From the IMG/VR virus record IMGVR_UViG_3300035562_000112, positions 1 through 36,558 of that record: 36,558 bases of DNA, one strand, 5' to 3'. The stretch's first letter is position 1; each line of letters opens with the position of its first letter. A program made the position numbers and the translations under genes. Below are positions 4,624-27,246 of this stretch, piece after piece. This DNA comes from a virus (Duplodnaviria; Caudoviricetes). A model generated the notes under the pieces. The model saw nothing but the letters and a program-made list of their open reading frames with translations. It ran no database searches and had not been told where the DNA came from.

Positions 4624-7149
4624 ATGGCTAGAAATTCCGGTTGCCGTCACGCTCCCACCCCACCGCTGCCATACCCTGGTAGCGGCGCGCCTGCTTTTGA
4701 ATGGGCATTCTCATGGAATGCACCGCTCCCGGTTATCGATCCATCGCTGAACCGACCGCCCGAAATCGATAAACAGACCGAAGAGCAGATCGCCGCCACC
4801 CTCAACGCTTATCTCCTGCTTGAACAGCAACCACAGCTGATCCAACGCGATGTGCGTTACCACATCAACAAGTTGGAAGAATCCCAGGGTATCCGCCGGG
4901 GCAATGCGTACTTGACGAAAAACTTTGTTGAGCGCGTATTGCCACGGCTTGATCTCGTTAGTGATAAATACCGCGCTTCCGATAACAACAGCGATGCCGC
5001 CCTGTGCCACCGCTTTAACCATCTGCCGGACGCCGGGCGAGCTGATATTGAACTGTTGGCGAAAGATATTACCGCTGTCATCAGGCAAGAACTGAGCATA
5101 GTCGATGAAGAGACTGGCCAGTCTTCTGAATTATTGAGCGTGATGGCGTTGTATAAAGGAGCCGCCGCGCTCACCCGCAGGTTTAAGCAGAAGCCGCCAC
5201 TGTGGAAAACCTACCAGGTGGCCAGCTGGAAAATGACAGTGGATAACACCACACCGGCAGTCATGCGCATGATGTCAGAGGATTGGTGGCTGCGACGTTT
5301 GCGACGCCATGCAGACCGCTGGAAAGAGCACCTGCATATTGCCATTGGCCACGTCAGCAAAAAAGCGACGCCCTATGCCAGCCGGCCAACTGTCAGCGAT
5401 TGGCGGGAGCAAAAACGCCGCACCCGTGAATTTTTAAAATCGATGGAACTGGAAGACGACGAAGGCAACCGCATATCGCTGATCGACAAGTACGATCACA
5501 GTGTTGCAAATCCAGCCATTCGCCGATGCGAGCTAATGAACCGCATTCGTGGTTTTGAGGATATCTGCAACGAAATGGGATTCGTGGGGGAGTTTTACAC
5601 CCTGACAGCCCCTTCCCGCTTCCATGCCACCAACAGACATGGCCACCGCAATCGCAAGTGGTGTGGAGCTAGCCCGGACGAAACGCAACGCTATCTGCGT
5701 AATGTGTGGGAACGCGCACGCGCCAAGCTACATCGTAAAGGGTTCCGTATCTTCGGGATCCGTGTGGCGGAGCCGCACGGTGACGGCACGCCTCACTGGC
5801 ATATGCTGCTATTCATGCGGCCCGAGGTAGTTGGCCAGGTGCGCGACATCCTGCGCGCTTATGCCTGCGCGGAAGACACTGACGAGCTTTACAGCGAACG
5901 CTCAAGAAAAGCCCGTTTCCACGCCGAAGCCATAGATCCGGAAAAAGGCAGCGCCACCGGTTACATCGCCAAATACATATCAAAGAATATCGACGGTTAC
6001 GCGCTTGATGGCGAACTGGACGACGACAGCGGTAAAGAGCTGAAAGAAATTGCTCCGGCAGTATCAGCCTGGGCAGCCCGTTGGCGTATACGACAGTTTC
6101 AGTTTATCGGCGGTGCACCAGTGACGGTTTACCGCGAATTGCGCCGCATGGCTGACCATGAAACCGCACTTGGCCTGAGTGTCGAGTTTGCCGCCGTACA
6201 TGATGCCGCCGATTATGGCCACTGGGCTGAATACGTCAACGCCCAGGGCGGCCCCTTTGTCCGGCGTGACGATCTGATCGTGCGCTCTTACTACGAGCCG
6301 GCAGAAGCCACTAACGACTATGGCGAAGACGTGATCCGGATACGGGGTGTGTTTTCACCACCGGTCGGGATGGATACCCCAATTATCACCCGCACGAAGG
6401 AATGGAAGTTCGTTCCGGCCCGTGCCGTTGACCTGGCCGTTGACCTTAAGGGCGCGTCTGCGCCCTCTCGGAGTTCTGTCAATAACTGTACGGTGCAGCC
6501 GGAAAGGCTAAAAACCAAACAGGTGCAGGAGCCATCGTCACCGCCTGAAAACCTCGATTTTGAGCGAATAACCGACAAAGAACGGCGGTTGTTGCTCCGG
6601 CGAATACGCAGCGCACCGCCAGAACCCATGAAAAATCCATTTATGGCCGTCGCCGAGGGCTTCGCATTGCCAGACGAAGGGCTAAATCTGCCACCAATAA
6701 GGTCGATACTGCCAGATCCGGCCAGCAATAAGCGGTGGCGGGAACAGGTGCGCCACGAACAAGAACAACGCGCCCTGGCTTATTTCAGTTTGGATGATGG
6801 GCAGGAGGCTGAAAATCACCGGCCATCTACTACGGCCCGCGCTGGCATTCACACAATCAAGCGAGCACTCAACAAGCTGGAACGCCAGATCGGTAGCTTC
6901 GCCGAGTCCATCGGTTTCAGTCTGGATGCCTGCATTCTGAAATCGGTGGCCAAGGGCGCAACGGTCACTATCGACGGTCAGCGCTACAGAGCGCGGGCCG
7001 ACGGTTGTCTGTATCAGCAATCAACGCCGGCAACCACCACCGCGCTAACGCGACTCACTGCGCTATGGCATCGGCAGATACCAGAGCAAACACGCCTTGT
7101 TGGCGACCACCTGAGAAAAGAAGCCATAAAGCAGCAATCGGAGGAATAG
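4624..7149 (+). CDS. A: Replication initiation endonuclease gpA (rolling circle, HUH)
   Basis: FYTLTAPSRFH, EPHGDGTPHWH (HUH) and GYIAKYISKNIDG (two Tyr) motifs; RQFQFIGGAPVTVYRELRR. Confidence 0.96.
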   Translation: MARNSGCRHAPTPPLPYPGSGAPAFEWAFSWNAPLPVIDPSLNRPPEIDKQTEEQIAATLNAYLLLEQQPQLIQRDVRYHINKLEESQGIRRGNAYLTKNFVERVLPRLDLVSDKYRASDNNSDAALCHRFNHLPDAGRADIELLAKDITAVIRQELSIVDEETGQSSELLSVMALYKGAAALTRRFKQKPPLWKTYQVASWKMTVDNTTPAVMRMMSEDWWLRRLRRHADRWKEHLHIAIGHVSKKATPYASRPTVSDWREQKRRTREFLKSMELEDDEGNRISLIDKYDHSVANPAIRRCELMNRIRGFEDICNEMGFVGEFYTLTAPSRFHATNRHGHRNRKWCGASPDETQRYLRNVWERARAKLHRKGFRIFGIRVAEPHGDGTPHWHMLLFMRPEVVGQVRDILRAYACAEDTDELYSERSRKARFHAEAIDPEKGSATGYIAKYISKNIDGYALDGELDDDSGKELKEIAPAVSAWAARWRIRQFQFIGGAPVTVYRELRRMADHETALGLSVEFAAVHDAADYGHWAEYVNAQGGPFVRRDDLIVRSYYEPAEATNDYGEDVIRIRGVFSPPVGMDTPIITRTKEWKFVPARAVDLAVDLKGASAPSRSSVNNCTVQPERLKTKQVQEPSSPPENLDFERITDKERRLLLRRIRSAPPEPMKNPFMAVAEGFALPDEGLNLPPIRSILPDPASNKRWREQVRHEQEQRALAYFSLDDGQEAENHRPSTTARAGIHTIKRALNKLERQIGSFAESIGFSLDACILKSVAKGATVTIDGQRYRARADGCLYQQSTPATTTALTRLTALWHRQIPEQTRLVGDHLRKEAIKQQSEE
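6424..6492 (+). other. Replication origin inside gene A (probable nick between 6470 and 6471)
   Basis: CTCG/GAGTTCTGTCAATAACTGT matches the recalled P2 ori; preceded by hairpin AGGGCGC-gtct-GCGCCCT (6449-6466) and direct repeat GCCGTTGACCT (6424-6434, 6436-6446). Confidence 0.8.
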
Positions 7150-7612: not shown

Positions 7613-8653
7613 TCATTGCTTTTTATTTCCAATGATTATTGTTGGGAATGGACAAAGGAAGTTTATTTTAGCAAAACCTGCTGTTTCACACATAATTGAC
7701 TCAGAAAGTTTTGATAATGGCTTATTTATAAATCCGTGACTGTAAAGTGGCCCATAACCTGGATAAAAACAAGACACTTTCATTCCGTCGTCGAAACGTT
7801 GTATTTTTATAAAATAACAATTGCCCTCTGAGAACAAACTCAATTCATTGTGTCCAAAACTTATCATTTTAAATGATATGTTATCAGGAAGACGATCATA
7901 GACACTTTCGAAAAGACATGTCTTGAGTTCATCTAAGTTTCTCTGCAAATGGATATATTCCATATATACGTCAGAACTAAGTTGGTTTGCCATCATTCCC
8001 CCACCAGGAGACATGATGACTGTCCCATCTTTTAAACTAATACATGCATTAGCGCCATTTGAGCGTAAGTTGTATCTTTCCAGAGGTGATAAAGAATGAC
8101 CCGTGACATTTTTTAACATATATTTTTCTAAAACATGTGGCCAATTATCATATAGTAGCTCTAACAATTGACTATCCGTAAATATTAGATCAGCCTCTTC
8201 CTTTCCATGTTTAAAAACTCCAACCACATAAATATCATTTTCGTCGACTTTTGCAATGAGTATATGCCCTGTTCTTTTGATATACCTTTTATTCTTGCCT
8301 GTTTTGTAATTCCCCTCACCTAAATGGAAGTGATAAAGGCCAAAATCATTTAGAAGTCCATCATGGAAATTTATTCTGTGAAGATGTGTACTTTGGTATG
8401 GATTAATATCCACCCCCCGTGACATCTTGTTAATTAGTATTTGCATTCCATTTATATCTTTAATTGGCACATTGAATTTATTTGGCAAATGGACAAGCCG
8501 TGGCCTTTGTTCGATTAACTTTCTCTTAATGTTTAACAAAAGACATATCAAAGGAAGGCTATTATTATTTGGTATTTTAAATTGAGCTTTAACAAGTTGA
8601 TCTAGGCAGAGCCTTTCTATTTCATTTTTCAGGTTAAACTGGATGTTTTTCAT
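7613..8653 (-). CDS. AT-rich accessory protein, putative YafO-like ribonuclease / defence candidate
   Basis: 346 aa in the A-portal accessory hotspot; DGLLNDFGLYHFHL...KRTGHILIAKV...IYVVGVFKH motif. ORF is solid; function is inferred. Confidence 0.7.
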   Translation of the reverse strand: MKNIQFNLKNEIERLCLDQLVKAQFKIPNNNSLPLICLLLNIKRKLIEQRPRLVHLPNKFNVPIKDINGMQILINKMSRGVDINPYQSTHLHRINFHDGLLNDFGLYHFHLGEGNYKTGKNKRYIKRTGHILIAKVDENDIYVVGVFKHGKEEADLIFTDSQLLELLYDNWPHVLEKYMLKNVTGHSLSPLERYNLRSNGANACISLKDGTVIMSPGGGMMANQLSSDVYMEYIHLQRNLDELKTCLFESVYDRLPDNISFKMISFGHNELSLFSEGNCYFIKIQRFDDGMKVSCFYPGYGPLYSHGFINKPLSKLSESIMCETAGFAKINFLCPFPTIIIGNKKQ

Positions 8654-9120: not shown

Positions 9121-9572
9121 CGCGCTACATACTTGATAATTCACTTTTTATGCAGTCGTAAAAATGCTTCAAAGTCTTGCGGCTATGGCTTAGAAGAATG
9201 ATTGGGTATGCAAGAAAGTATGCGGATTGTTGCACTTAGTGTATGCAATATTTTTTATTTAAAATCCGGATCGATCTCGATAAAAAATACGCTTTAGATA
9301 AGAATCCCTGCACAGGAAATGTCAGATGATGCACAACTACCCTGCCACGTCACAATTTTATTTTCAACATTCGTGTGACAGGTCACGCATGGTGATGCAC
9401 CTGCATTGGAATTTTACGCTTCACGGCTAAAACCATCGTCTCACTTGCAAATTATCACAACGTGGACTGGTTGCCCTTAGCACACAGTTCTAGCACTAAA
9501 GTCAGTGACCGGTATGCCACCGATACCAAATTTTCTAGCGATGGATTGGATGACAATTTAGATATGGGGGTG

Positions 9573-9622
9573 ATATCTATTTGATATCTTCCTTGACAAG
9601 GGTGATATCAAATAGATATACT
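9573..9622 (+). promoter_or_regulatory. Sigma70 promoter embedded in a 47-bp near-perfect palindrome (operator)
   Basis: ATATCTATTTGATATC 9573-9588 is the exact reverse complement of GATATCAAATAGATAT 9604-9619; TTGACA 9593-9598 at the centre; TATACT 9617-9622 at an 18-bp spacer. Confidence 0.8.
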
Positions 9623-9667
9623 CAATGAATGATAAGAATCTACACCCAACTACTATAGGAGACCATC

Positions 9668-9679
9668 ATGCGAAGATGA
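9668..9679 (+). other. Minigene ATG CGA AGA TGA (Met-Arg-Arg-stop) with strong Shine-Dalgarno
   Basis: AGGAG 9657-9661, 6 nt before ATG 9668; first SD-ATG pair after the promoter. Confidence 0.55.
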
Positions 9680-9697
9680 ACTTAACCCCATAAGGGA

Positions 9698-9850
9698 GCC
9701 ATATCTTACGCGCAACGCGTGGGATCGACGAGATTGAATTAACTGGTCTCGACTTAAATATGAGCAACTGCGCAATGCAGATGTTAATTCAGTGTACACG
9801 TTAATATCAGACGTTTTAACTCTTTTCCAACTGATATATAACTCACTGAA
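9698..9850 (+). ncRNA. Putative structured leader / ncRNA
   Basis: Stems 9703-9725, 9729-9751, 9768-9780 and 9788-9850, plus 9-bp complementarity between 9735-9743 and 9783-9791. Confidence 0.5.
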
Positions 9851-9885
9851 ATCTATATAAAAGAGAAATCGTATAGGAATTAAAC

Positions 9886-10170
9886 ATGAATCTCACCACT
9901 GAAAAACAAGCAGACAGCTTCTTATTCAGACTGAGAAGCCAGGACACCCCAACTGGAATCAGCGCAAACACACTGAAGCAGCTGATCGATGAAACGGGCC
10001 TGAGCAAAACCGAAGTCTTACATCTCGCACTTCGTTTGTTCGCAAACACACGTTTGCCGTACTACGAACCGGATGATGCGGCTTTAACAGGTGCTCAAAT
10101 CCAGTATCTACGCGAGACTAGTCCCGCTAATGACATACCGGAGGAGAGGTTTACAAATAGACTATTCTGA
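9886..10170 (+). CDS. Ribbon-helix-helix protein, putative antitoxin/autorepressor
   Basis: Strand FLFRLR, helix NTLKQLIDETG, helix SKTEVLHLALRLFA; acidic C-terminal tail; RBS AGGA; directly upstream of a PemK-like gene. Confidence 0.7.
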   Translation: MNLTTEKQADSFLFRLRSQDTPTGISANTLKQLIDETGLSKTEVLHLALRLFANTRLPYYEPDDAALTGAQIQYLRETSPANDIPEERFTNRLF

Positions 10171-10178
10171 CGGAGTTA

Positions 10179-10646
10179 ATGATGGCCGAAGAGAAAGAAC
10201 CACAACAAATTGAAATTTTTCCACTTGCTACTGCTGGGTCCATTGTCTGGAGCCGATTCCCTGATCATGGAATCCCTGGGCCAAGCCCAAAACCACGCCC
10301 GGCGCTCGTGATCCGTTCCTCACCTGAGGAAAATGTGGTTTTTGTCGCATATGCCACAACTTCAAAAACTGACAAGATCTACTCGACGGAGTTCCTTATC
10401 AGCGTTAATGACGATGATTTTGAACAAACGGGCCTAGCTTTGACGACGAAATTCGATATGGGCCACACCGTCCAATTACCTTATAATTCTGAGTATTTCT
10501 CAGTCGCTCCCCAGCGTCCCGGCGGACCTATCCCAAGAACGCCTCGTATGGGGACTTTACCCGCCAGCTATTTCACAGTAGCCAAAACGGCTTTCGAAAA
10601 GGCTAACGCACCTAAAAAAAAGAAGACTTCCAAGCCTGAGAAATAG
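10179..10646 (+). CDS. PemK/MazF-like endoribonuclease toxin
   Basis: GSIVWSRFP...KPRPALVI...VFVAYATT...TGLALTTKFD parallels the PemK/MazF motifs G.I.W..F, K.RP.LV, V...T(T/S) and GL; RBS GGAG. Confidence 0.78.
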   Translation: MMAEEKEPQQIEIFPLATAGSIVWSRFPDHGIPGPSPKPRPALVIRSSPEENVVFVAYATTSKTDKIYSTEFLISVNDDDFEQTGLALTTKFDMGHTVQLPYNSEYFSVAPQRPGGPIPRTPRMGTLPASYFTVAKTAFEKANAPKKKKTSKPEK

Positions 10647-10649
10647 TTC

Positions 10650-10680
10650 CTGATAGCCTCCTACTACTGGGGGCTATCAG
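10650..10680 (+). terminator. Hairpin ending the RHH-PemK operon
   Basis: CTGATAGCCTCC 10650-10661 pairs with GGGGGCTATCAG 10669-10680; no clear U-tract. Confidence 0.6.
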
Positions 10681-10855: not shown

Positions 10856-11893
10856 TTATGTGTCCTTCTTCAGCAATTCATAAGGCTTGAAGCTGATCAC
10901 CTCTTCCCCTGCCCACTCGTTTAGCTCACACAGCCGCTCTTGCAGCGGAGCCAGCTCGTTAATGGCAAACACCCGTGCAGCCTTCTCTACATCACCAAAG
11001 CCACCGGTGTTATTCGGTAAAATCCCCATCAGTTGCGGCGGCGTGCGCTGGGCCGCAAGCTGATCATCACGGGTGACGTTTTTGATGTTCAAAAACTCGT
11101 CCTTTGCCGCGACTTCGGCCAGAGGGATCAGTTGTAACCCGTCCGGCTTACCGCCTGGGGCGTACATAAACAGGTTGCGGAAGTTACCCGGCCCTTTTGA
11201 CTCTTTCAGCGCTTTACGCAGGTTATCAATATCCTCCTGCTTATGCGCCGCATCGTTCATGTACAGGATAAACCCGGCATGACTGCCGTTAAGGTAGTAT
11301 TTCCGGCGGAACAGCGTCGCCGCCTCGTTAAGCCAGATGGAGTTAAGCGAGGAAAGGTATTCGGGAACGCCGTAAATCTCCTGGTTAATGTCAGGATCCA
11401 GCAGGTGGAAAATAGAACCCTCCGCAAACTGATGCGGCTCCATCCATGATTGCACGAACCAGTAAGAGTCAGTTTCAACACCACGGCGGGTGTATTTCGC
11501 CAGGCTGGGGGCCAGCTTCATCAGGCCGCCCAACCGGTTATAGCGCCCCTCAATAAAACTGTTGCCAAACACCATAAAATCCTGCGCATAGCGGCTAAAA
11601 TCCTGCTTTGACAGTAGCCGGTGAGGCTTGAACATGCTCACCAAAATATTGCGCTTCATGGTGATCGGTGAACTGTGATGCACTGCTGCGCGGAACGTTT
11701 TCGCAAGGCCACTGAAAGAGATCGGCGGCTCATACCAACGGTCAACAATGCTGCATTCCAGATAGTCCAGGATTTCACGACGATCCAGCATCGGGATCGG
11801 GTCGCCGAAGGTGAAGGCCTCAACATGCTGTGCGCCGCTTTGTTTCTGCGTGATCGGCTGGGTATTTTTGTGGCCCCGGTTGCGTTTACTCAT
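10856..11893 (-). CDS. Q: Portal protein gpQ
   Basis: EAFTFGDP, WYEPPISFSGLAK, DINQEIYGVPEY and AAKDEFLNIK motifs of P2/PBSX portals. Confidence 0.96.
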   Translation of the reverse strand: MSKRNRGHKNTQPITQKQSGAQHVEAFTFGDPIPMLDRREILDYLECSIVDRWYEPPISFSGLAKTFRAAVHHSSPITMKRNILVSMFKPHRLLSKQDFSRYAQDFMVFGNSFIEGRYNRLGGLMKLAPSLAKYTRRGVETDSYWFVQSWMEPHQFAEGSIFHLLDPDINQEIYGVPEYLSSLNSIWLNEAATLFRRKYYLNGSHAGFILYMNDAAHKQEDIDNLRKALKESKGPGNFRNLFMYAPGGKPDGLQLIPLAEVAAKDEFLNIKNVTRDDQLAAQRTPPQLMGILPNNTGGFGDVEKAARVFAINELAPLQERLCELNEWAGEEVISFKPYELLKKDT

Positions 11894-26310: not shown

Positions 26311-27246
26311 CTAGTTTCTATTATTGTCATTAAACTCATCTATCAGATTAAGCTGACGTCGTCGAGCACGGTTCGGCCTTGCCGTTGATGTATCTAATGC
26401 CAAAAATTTTCTGTTCATATATTCAACAGGCTTAGAAAAGCCATCTATTATTGACTCGAGATCTTCGAGATAGGTATTGATATTTCTTTCATCAACTTGG
26501 CCTCGAAGCATCCGACGTCTTAATCGGGATAAATTATCAAAAGACTCAACCAAGTCAGAAGTAACATTATCCAAATGCAGGTCTCTAACTGTATCTGTCC
26601 CTAATACTTTCCTAACGTAATCTTCAGGTAATAATACTTCAGGATTCCTAAGAAGTTGATGATTCGTTCTACTTAGATCTAGTAAACTTTCAACTATATG
26701 AGATATATTTTGTATTTCTATATTTGAACTGCCTTTAGAGGCTTTTGTCGCTTCTTTTGTTTCGGTTTCTGGTTCTTCGATCTTTGAAAGCTCAGAACTT
26801 AACGTTGGCCACCATTGTTCAAAGGAATTAGCCAAACGCTCACTAGTTAAAAAATCACCTTGCTTATTTATAGAGGAAAGTAGTTTTAAAATATCTTCTT
26901 TATCATCTGACCGAGTGTGTTGAAATTGGAGAATAGGGCCAGTAACTTCCGATGGTTTAATTTTAAAAAGAAATGGGCTTAATTTACTTTTATCAACCTT
27001 CTTGCTTAATGCTCCAGCCTCGAAATTTATCCAAGGGGCAGATATATTATTTTTTGTTAGGCAAATTATTCCATACAAAGAGTCATCAAGTTCTTTTGAT
27101 ATATCAGCAGCCCAACGAGTCCCTTTATCAATATCCTCAGCGGAAACATATGGCTTCACGGCCTGGATTACATTTGGGATCCAATCCCTTAATATTTTCG
27201 CTATTTGAAGGCTATCAGTTCCTGACCAGCTAATAAATATTTTCAT
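26311..27246 (-). CDS. TIR-domain protein with C-terminal helical region
   Basis: MKIFISWSG, DIDKGTRW, GIICLT and PWINFEAGAL (catalytic Glu position); RBS AAGGTGA; AT-rich. Confidence 0.9.
   Translation of the reverse strand: MKIFISWSGTDSLQIAKILRDWIPNVIQAVKPYVSAEDIDKGTRWAADISKELDDSLYGIICLTKNNISAPWINFEAGALSKKVDKSKLSPFLFKIKPSEVTGPILQFQHTRSDDKEDILKLLSSINKQGDFLTSERLANSFEQWWPTLSSELSKIEEPETETKEATKASKGSSNIEIQNISHIVESLLDLSRTNHQLLRNPEVLLPEDYVRKVLGTDTVRDLHLDNVTSDLVESFDNLSRLRRRMLRGQVDERNINTYLEDLESIIDGFSKPVEYMNRKFLALDTSTARPNRARRRQLNLIDEFNDNNRN

Follow-up and report, generated by a model that had tools for sequence, protein, structure and literature searches.

Most accounts of type II toxin-antitoxin systems attribute their control to autorepression and to turnover of the antitoxin, and how the toxin is switched on is an open question for those that serve phage defence. 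In type III systems, the antitoxins are RNA pseudoknots, the toxins have a MazF fold, and RNA and toxin co-evolve, as described in PMC5086642. In the IncI1/IncB repZ system, a leader pseudoknot with a leader peptide activates translation (PMC8053102).

The DNA analyzed here (the window; 36,558 nt in full) is a P2-like prophage. Between its gpA gene (4624–7149) and its portal gene (10856–11893) lie a PD-T4-7-like gene and a cassette comprising a predicted antitoxin gene and a MazF/PemK-fold toxin gene. This position is the gpA-gpQ slot of P2, which is described as an anti-phage hotspot in PMC9122126, in agreement with the preliminary description of this DNA. Two homologous loci (L015 and L016) occupy the same slot and another (L158) abuts a portal gene, whereas other homologues of the pair are found on plasmids and at other prophage sites. 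The terms 'MazF' and 'PemK' are absent from the main text of PMC9122126. The curated defence models of PADLOC (library dated 2023) gave no match for the antitoxin, the toxin or four related toxins, and it is from position alone that we infer an anti-phage role for the cassette. A second low-GC island, located among the tail genes, carries a TIR-TM gene (26311–27246, minus strand; PADLOC E 1e-111).

The cassette had been described as one self-contained unit, and all of its parts were confirmed. They are listed below with the neighbouring gene.

7613–8653, minus strand: PD-T4-7-like gene (PADLOC E 3e-36), in the same hotspot and divergent from the cassette
9572–9619, no strand: double palindromic operator, GATATC-N5-GATAT(C/A) twice; inverted repeat, predicted RHH autorepression site
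9593–9622, plus strand: predicted sigma-70 promoter TTGACA-18-TATACT, 11/12 consensus, predicted start at about 9629
9657–9679, plus strand: Shine-Dalgarno (SD) sequence AGGAGA (9657–9662) and minigene ATG CGA AGA TGA (MRR-stop, 9668–9679), read from the sequence
9703–9780, plus strand: three local hairpins (9703–9725, 9729–9751, 9768–9780), variable, differing in number between loci and poorly alignable beyond L123
9788–9850, plus strand: conserved hairpin with outer stem 9788–9794/9844–9850, internal loop, inner stem 9800–9810/9831–9842 and a 20-nt loop
9820–9865, plus strand: loop-tail helix, CUCUUUU (9820–9826) with AAAAGAG (9859–9865), pseudoknot or alternative pairing
9875–9888, plus strand: antitoxin ribosome-binding site (RBS) AGGA (9875–9878) and start codon, accessibility computed
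9886–10170, plus strand: predicted antitoxin, 94 aa, with RHH-like N-terminus and predicted toxin-binding C-terminus
10179–10646, plus strand: MazF/PemK-fold toxin, 155 aa (PemK_toxin E 7.5e-5), keeping Arg40 and Thr60
10650–10680, plus strand: closing 12-bp hairpin, no U-run, predicted 3´-end structure

The gene pair, its operator and its relatives

The assignment of the second gene to the PemK/MazF-like toxins is upheld. The protein scores 23.3 bits against Pfam PemK_toxin (cut-off 23.1), which is the sole Pfam family at E values up to 1. Its structure model (pLDDT 94) is closest to MazF (Z 13.3, up to 13.8; rmsd 3.0, 108 aligned residues), with an identity of only 12–24% to solved MazFs. 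Arg40 and Thr60, which we take to match the catalytic Arg and Thr of MazF, are nearly invariant across 138 toxin sequences, and the toxin profile aligns to the RP motif of E. coli MazF. A lysine-rich C-terminal tail (PKKKKTSKPEK, 10600–10646) is missing in most aligned homologues.

The first gene is present where an RHH gene had been reported, but its likeness to RHH proteins is weak. The family search returned RelB at E 0.019 and a CopG-type RHH family at a non-significant E of 1.5, below the Pfam cut-off; no NCBIfam or PHROG family was found for either protein. Prediction of the antitoxin-toxin complex gave a score of 0.72 compared with 0.03 for the best of three controls, at a mark reached by 116 of 157 solved pairs and 2 of 215 mismatched pairs. 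Run-to-run contact agreement was at least 59% and partner pLDDT at least 73, values for a pair that may pass through likeness to solved MazEF. In the predicted complex, antitoxin residues 52–94 lie over the active site of the toxin dimer, with contacts that include Arg40 and Thr60, suggesting that the antitoxin tail blocks the RNase site. The core of the cassette therefore looks like an ordinary type II toxin-antitoxin pair, because the modelled toxin resembles MazF in fold and its active site is where the antitoxin tail is predicted to lie.

The complex is predicted to repress its own promoter. The arms of the inverted repeat (9573–9595 and 9597–9619) are 23 nt each and 91% complementary, and a GATATC-like site is located upstream of the antitoxin gene in 108 of 138 distinct homologous loci. 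The halves of the operator spacer change together in L123. The promoter overlaps the inverted repeat, and the same arrangement is observed in homologues. Thus a near-consensus promoter site does lie across the palindrome, as previously reported, but the strength assigned to it is a prediction and the match alone is not rare, because the scan gave 2 sites compared with 3.7 expected in shuffled sequence. The same type of scan found no antisense promoter in the window. The closing hairpin follows the toxin gene as described earlier, and the terminator scan did not call it a terminator. Contigs of one putative RNA run cover each of the two genes in part but miss the leader, and are uninformative.

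The family is widespread, with 304 proteins on plasmids and prophages and in genomes and metagenomes, the genome part being the best 80 of 185. A toxin match is present at 135 of 138 distinct antitoxin loci. In the window, about 257 nt separate the predicted start (about 9629) from the antitoxin ATG at 9886. The operator-to-ATG distance across 108 loci is 50 nt or less in 63, 51–120 nt in 15, 121–300 nt in 25 and more than 300 nt in 5, a count in which near-duplicates may remain and from which 30 loci with no detected operator are left out. The leaders of the Photorhabdus pairs are only 38–48 nt. A leader RNA is thus not required family-wide, because most leaders are short.

DNA similarity searches gave no match in E. 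coli genomes or phages, and a search of phages with the toxin gave none either. A DNA search with the leader returned two Leclercia plasmids only, besides three short chance matches. Scans with toxin profiles were positive in 5/401 and 1/401 genomes, and the double-operator pattern found one locus, which was already known. Single-protein scans of viral sequences gave two loci that proved spurious, and a second scan gave none.

Other contents of the leader slot were observed. In L028, L030 and L032, a gene of 121–132 aa is located between the operator and the antitoxin gene, forming a three-gene version; the middle gene of L030 (1855–2220) has no Pfam, PADLOC or NCBIfam match. In L016, a copy in the P2 slot, the leader is filled by an (AAACTT)n tandem array (about 1900–2050).

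The leader RNA and the upstream open reading frames

Taken as a whole, the leader folds only modestly better than shuffled sequence (z -2.34, 5/200 shuffles as good), and the corresponding z-scores are unremarkable in 7 of the 8 loci that bear the RNA described here. These loci are the window, L123, L125, L126, L127, L004, L144 and L159, with antitoxins 62–74% identical to that of the window. The last 101 nt of their leaders are 64–83% identical to the window and their toxins 38–48%; L123 is 83% identical in RNA, 74% in antitoxin and 44% in toxin.

The conserved domain comprises the 3´ 78 nt of the leader (9788–9865). RNAalifold folded the eight loci into a hairpin of 15 pairs, 8 of which show double changes. 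With the loop-tail helix added, 90.9% of 176 cells are paired and double changes occur in 11 of 22 pairs, for a structure derived from the same eight sequences; the one copy that did not enter the derivation, L189, is close to L125. None of 500 shuffles reached the observed values, and slid controls were 40–48% paired. Because related sequences can beat shuffles, neutral evolution was simulated along the tree, starting from an ancestor in which every pair was formed. The simulated sequences were 67–70% paired at about matched identity, and 0/150 runs reached the observed 90.8% pairing or 8 double-change pairs under either rate model. In 5 of 7 comparisons, the plain identity of the domain does not exceed that of third codon positions.

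The loop-tail helix was also evaluated in a motif-anchored alignment. All 56 cells pair with their own partner across the eight loci, compared with a mean of 6.3 of 7 for cross partners (permutation fraction 0.006), and a partner arises by chance in a shuffled tail at 0.01–0.11 per locus. Two pairs in L125 and one in L126 are compensated, and wobble changes occur in L127. The linker between hairpin and box is 5–10 nt, which is tight for a pseudoknot built on the full hairpin. The leader RNA is a predicted pseudoknot, but its loop-tail helix may instead form only when the outer stem is open.

Searches placed the domain in one clade. A covariance model gave 9 matches in 72 sources, all at loci of the window-type antitoxin clade. 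The RNA model alone found one copy in 75 genomes, L189, directly before the same antitoxin; both stem differences between L189 and L125 keep pairing, as judged by eye. No match was found in 151 further genomes. RNA patterns gave 13 matches in viral contigs, comprising 2 known loci and 11 rejected by the covariance model; a broader pattern gave two loci, both known, and the single match in 401 genomes (L186) was taken as chance. Rfam had no match in the window at gathering score, with chance-level hits only in the leader and in five related loci. In a quick antitoxin tree, 7 of the 8 RNA-bearing loci form one branch (support 99) and L125 groups with a Pantoea locus that does not bear the RNA, which implies RNA loss or transfer.

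A coding role for the domain was considered and rejected: a VYT..LFQ frame is visible in several loci, but a frameshift interrupts it in L123, and stop codons do so in L144 and L159.

Judged from this pattern of substitutions, the 3´ end of the leader is a genuine RNA element, conserved within a small clade of enterobacterial type. The leader is indeed more than filler, as had been proposed, since its 3´ domain covaries over eight divergent loci and includes a pseudoknot-type helix. Leader, minigene and stems, whose joint occurrence and covariation among homologous pairs had been proposed as a check, do go together in these loci, most of which carry an SD-led minigene as well. Most pairs of the family have short leaders, and a lack of the leader in homologous pairs was one of the findings named beforehand as speaking against a third component.

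The MRR-stop minigene was found with its SD sequence as first described, and that of L123 is identical. SD-led open reading frames (ORFs) of three codons or fewer occur in 6 of the 8 RNA-bearing loci (MRR, MRR, MP, MR/MT, MK and M), at a chance of 0.09–0.23 per shuffled leader for loci that are not independent. L004 has a 10-codon SD-led ORF and L144 no SD-led start, and an SD sequence near the 5´ end is visible in all eight. The stop codon is TAG in L125 and TAA in L189, so the stop is kept. The peptide is not the conserved part, because its sequence varies while the SD sequence and the quick stop persist. The first SD sequence lies 33–57 nt past the operator, about where short-leader members start their antitoxin. 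A distance of 108–206 nt separates the minigene stop from the antitoxin ATG, which makes simple coupling of the two unlikely.

The minigene stop overlaps an ATG (AG-ATG-A) that opens a second short frame, MNLTP-stop (9676–9693), and the antitoxin starts with MNLTT. MNIT in L123 and MNLTKK in L016 are located at the same place. This frame may stem from an ancient duplication of the antitoxin start, or the likeness may be due to chance.

Clades that do not have the RNA domain carry SD-led upstream ORFs of 12–22 codons with stops 46–58 nt before the antitoxin ATG. Under the rule applied here, this type was observed in 8 of 9 Klebsiella-type and 1 of 3 Cronobacter-type loci, and in these sister clades the ORFs are followed by a AAGAGAGG box; no consensus fold was found for the Klebsiella-type leaders. 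Upstream ribosome loading thus seems to be a wider theme of the enterobacterial branch. In L003, L010, L015–L018, L020, L148 and L152, a conserved AAGAGAGG box with no start codon lies 35–50 nt before the antitoxin ATG. In L007, a 14-nt stretch matching the AAGAGAGG box serves as the actual RBS for an antitoxin with an N-terminal extension. The 20-codon upstream ORFs of L130 and L131 end in AALVLTHRIRLR-stop with 4/4 tail differences synonymous, and may encode a stalling leader peptide.

Possible functions of the leader

We favour, at about an even chance, the reading that the cassette is a type II RHH-MazF operon in which the leader RNA acts as a cis translational switch for the antitoxin. 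The loop-tail helix ends 17–23 nt before the antitoxin AUG in 8/8 loci, and this comparison places it at the edge of the antitoxin ribosome footprint. When both helix strands are sequestered in the computation, the energy required to open the RBS drops by 0.2–3.1 kcal/mol in 8/8 loci; the window's own gain is small (0.8–1.0 kcal/mol). Native codons 2–5 rank in the top 3–10% of synonymous recodings for this gain in 5/8 loci, which are related and share one box sequence. L125, L126 and L127 fail the box-specific control (recoding ranks 0.60–0.91): the box gain of L125 and L127 is 0.1 kcal/mol, and in L126 blocking the linker (3.3) exceeds blocking the box (2.7). The switch is favoured because the helix keeps a fixed distance from the AUG and because the box effect is specific in five of the eight loci.

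In such a switch, pairing of the loop with the AAAAGAG box would keep the box off the ribosome-binding region and codons 2–5, and antitoxin translation would be favoured. Disruption of the pseudoknot would lower antitoxin synthesis and release the toxin, giving an addiction or abortive-infection response. The disrupting signal may be free toxin that cleaves the RNA, an RNA or protein from a phage, or stalled translation. The upstream SD-minigene would serve as a ribosome-loading site rather than encode a functional peptide. If so, a covarying leader pseudoknot at the antitoxin RBS offers a mutable handle on how the toxin is switched on, and the short-leader relatives are natural controls.

Ribosomes and structure act as obstacles to RNase E, and the leader could instead be a cis element for stability or processing, in which the minigene parks a ribosome, the structure protects the message end or fixes where it lies, and both set its decay after shut-off. 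We consider this unlikely. The SD sequence near the 5´ end in all eight loci, while the peptide varies, is in line with it, as is the conservation of the structure with no consistent effect on the RBS (three of eight fail); it leaves unexplained the fixed distance of 17–23 nt between helix and AUG and the complementarity of codons 2–5 in five of eight loci.

A rather unlikely variant is an RNA-gated type II module, in which either the toxin or a phage product would recognize or cleave the pseudoknot, which would thereby set the supply of antitoxin or hold the toxin directly. Such a module would represent an extant intermediate linking MazF type II systems to pseudoknot-held type III systems. 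If the RNA does bind the toxin, it would bear on the origin of type III RNA antitoxins from MazF-fold type II ancestors.

The preliminary description had gone further and proposed the RNA as a functional third component, a toxin ligand that serves as RNA antitoxin, as gate or as dedicated substrate in a type II/III hybrid, which appears improbable. A pseudoknot-type RNA is predicted to be co-transcribed upstream of a MazF-fold toxin, matching the pseudoknot antitoxins and the shared toxin fold of type III systems (PMC5086642), in a P2 hotspot position (PMC9122126). The toxins of RNA-bearing loci also sit on long branches and vary at the family motifs YGTSQK and KPRPALV. The leader, however, holds no tandem repeat family (best 25-nt self-identity, 14–19 of 25), and a search for a Rho-independent terminator with a U-tail before the genes found none but the 5-bp stem 9768–9780, which lies upstream of the domain (3 found, 2.0 by chance). 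The toxin model is nearer to MazF than to the type III toxins CptN (Z 7.5; rmsd 4.0, 114 aligned residues), ToxN (5.2 and 4.8) and AbiQ (4.7), and the antitoxin tail is predicted to occupy its active site. The two closest relatives of the window toxin are short-leader Photorhabdus proteins (56–57% identity), with which it groups weakly (support 0.81). Across loci, similarity of the RNA is tied more to the antitoxin gene than to the toxin, as in L123, a pattern that physical linkage alone could give. A type III antitoxin is disfavoured because repeats and terminator are absent and the toxins of RNA-bearing loci are only 38–48% alike; together with the 63 of 108 leaders that are short, these observations make the proposal a less good reading than the cis switch.

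It is equally improbable that the long leader is a passenger, left in a variable slot by an inserted element or by a third gene that decayed, with the minigene as the stranded original RBS. The location of the first SD sequence near the antitoxin start of short-leader members fits this reading, as do the 121–132-aa gene in the same slot of three loci, the unrelated leaders of other clades with no consensus fold, and the VYT..LFQ frame. This frame is nevertheless broken in three loci, and pairing is far above neutral decay (0/150), with compensatory changes in three helices.

The earlier suggestion that the minigene is a second toxin, which once derepressed would drain tRNA-Arg as peptidyl-tRNA like toxic minigenes, is highly improbable: in vitro, the build-up of peptidyl-tRNA-Arg4 was greatest with the shortest AGA-AGA-stop minigene (PMC2490762), and many upstream ORFs of the clade end in AGA, CGA or ATA by eye, but the cited effect comes from a Pth-defective system, relatives encode MP, MK or a start-stop, and L144 has no SD-led start.

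Comparison with described systems

We found no paper describing this pair or its leader in the open-licence literature; within it, a pair with a clade-restricted, covarying leader RNA is apparently undescribed.

The closest systems by protein are type II MazEF/PemIK modules with an RHH antitoxin, such as B. subtilis MazEF (4me7) and M. tuberculosis MazEF-mt1 (6kyt). These share with the window the MazF fold, the antitoxin gene in first position, an operator-like site over the promoter and an antitoxin tail predicted on the toxin. The window pair differs by its leader of about 257 nt with a minigene and a covarying RNA. E. coli mazEF is likewise a MazF type II system under RNA-level control; the subjects of PMC5888573 and PMC8749433 are self-cleavage and an antisense RNA rather than a conserved structured 5´ leader.

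ToxIN, CptIN and AbiQ resemble the predicted arrangement of the cassette in that a pseudoknot-type RNA precedes a MazF-fold RNase gene on the same transcript, in a mobile, defence-type context. In contrast to their tandem repeats of 34–36 nt, the window has a single domain of about 78 nt. It shows no clear terminator, its RNA and toxin gene are separated by the gene for a protein antitoxin, and the toxin is nearer to MazF.

The closest model for how the leader may work is repY-repZ of IncI1/IncB, in which a leader ORF and a pseudoknot are tied to translation of the next gene (PMC8053102). In the window, the minigene is far upstream, at one to three codons across the clade, and the target is an antitoxin; the likeness is one of proposed mechanism.
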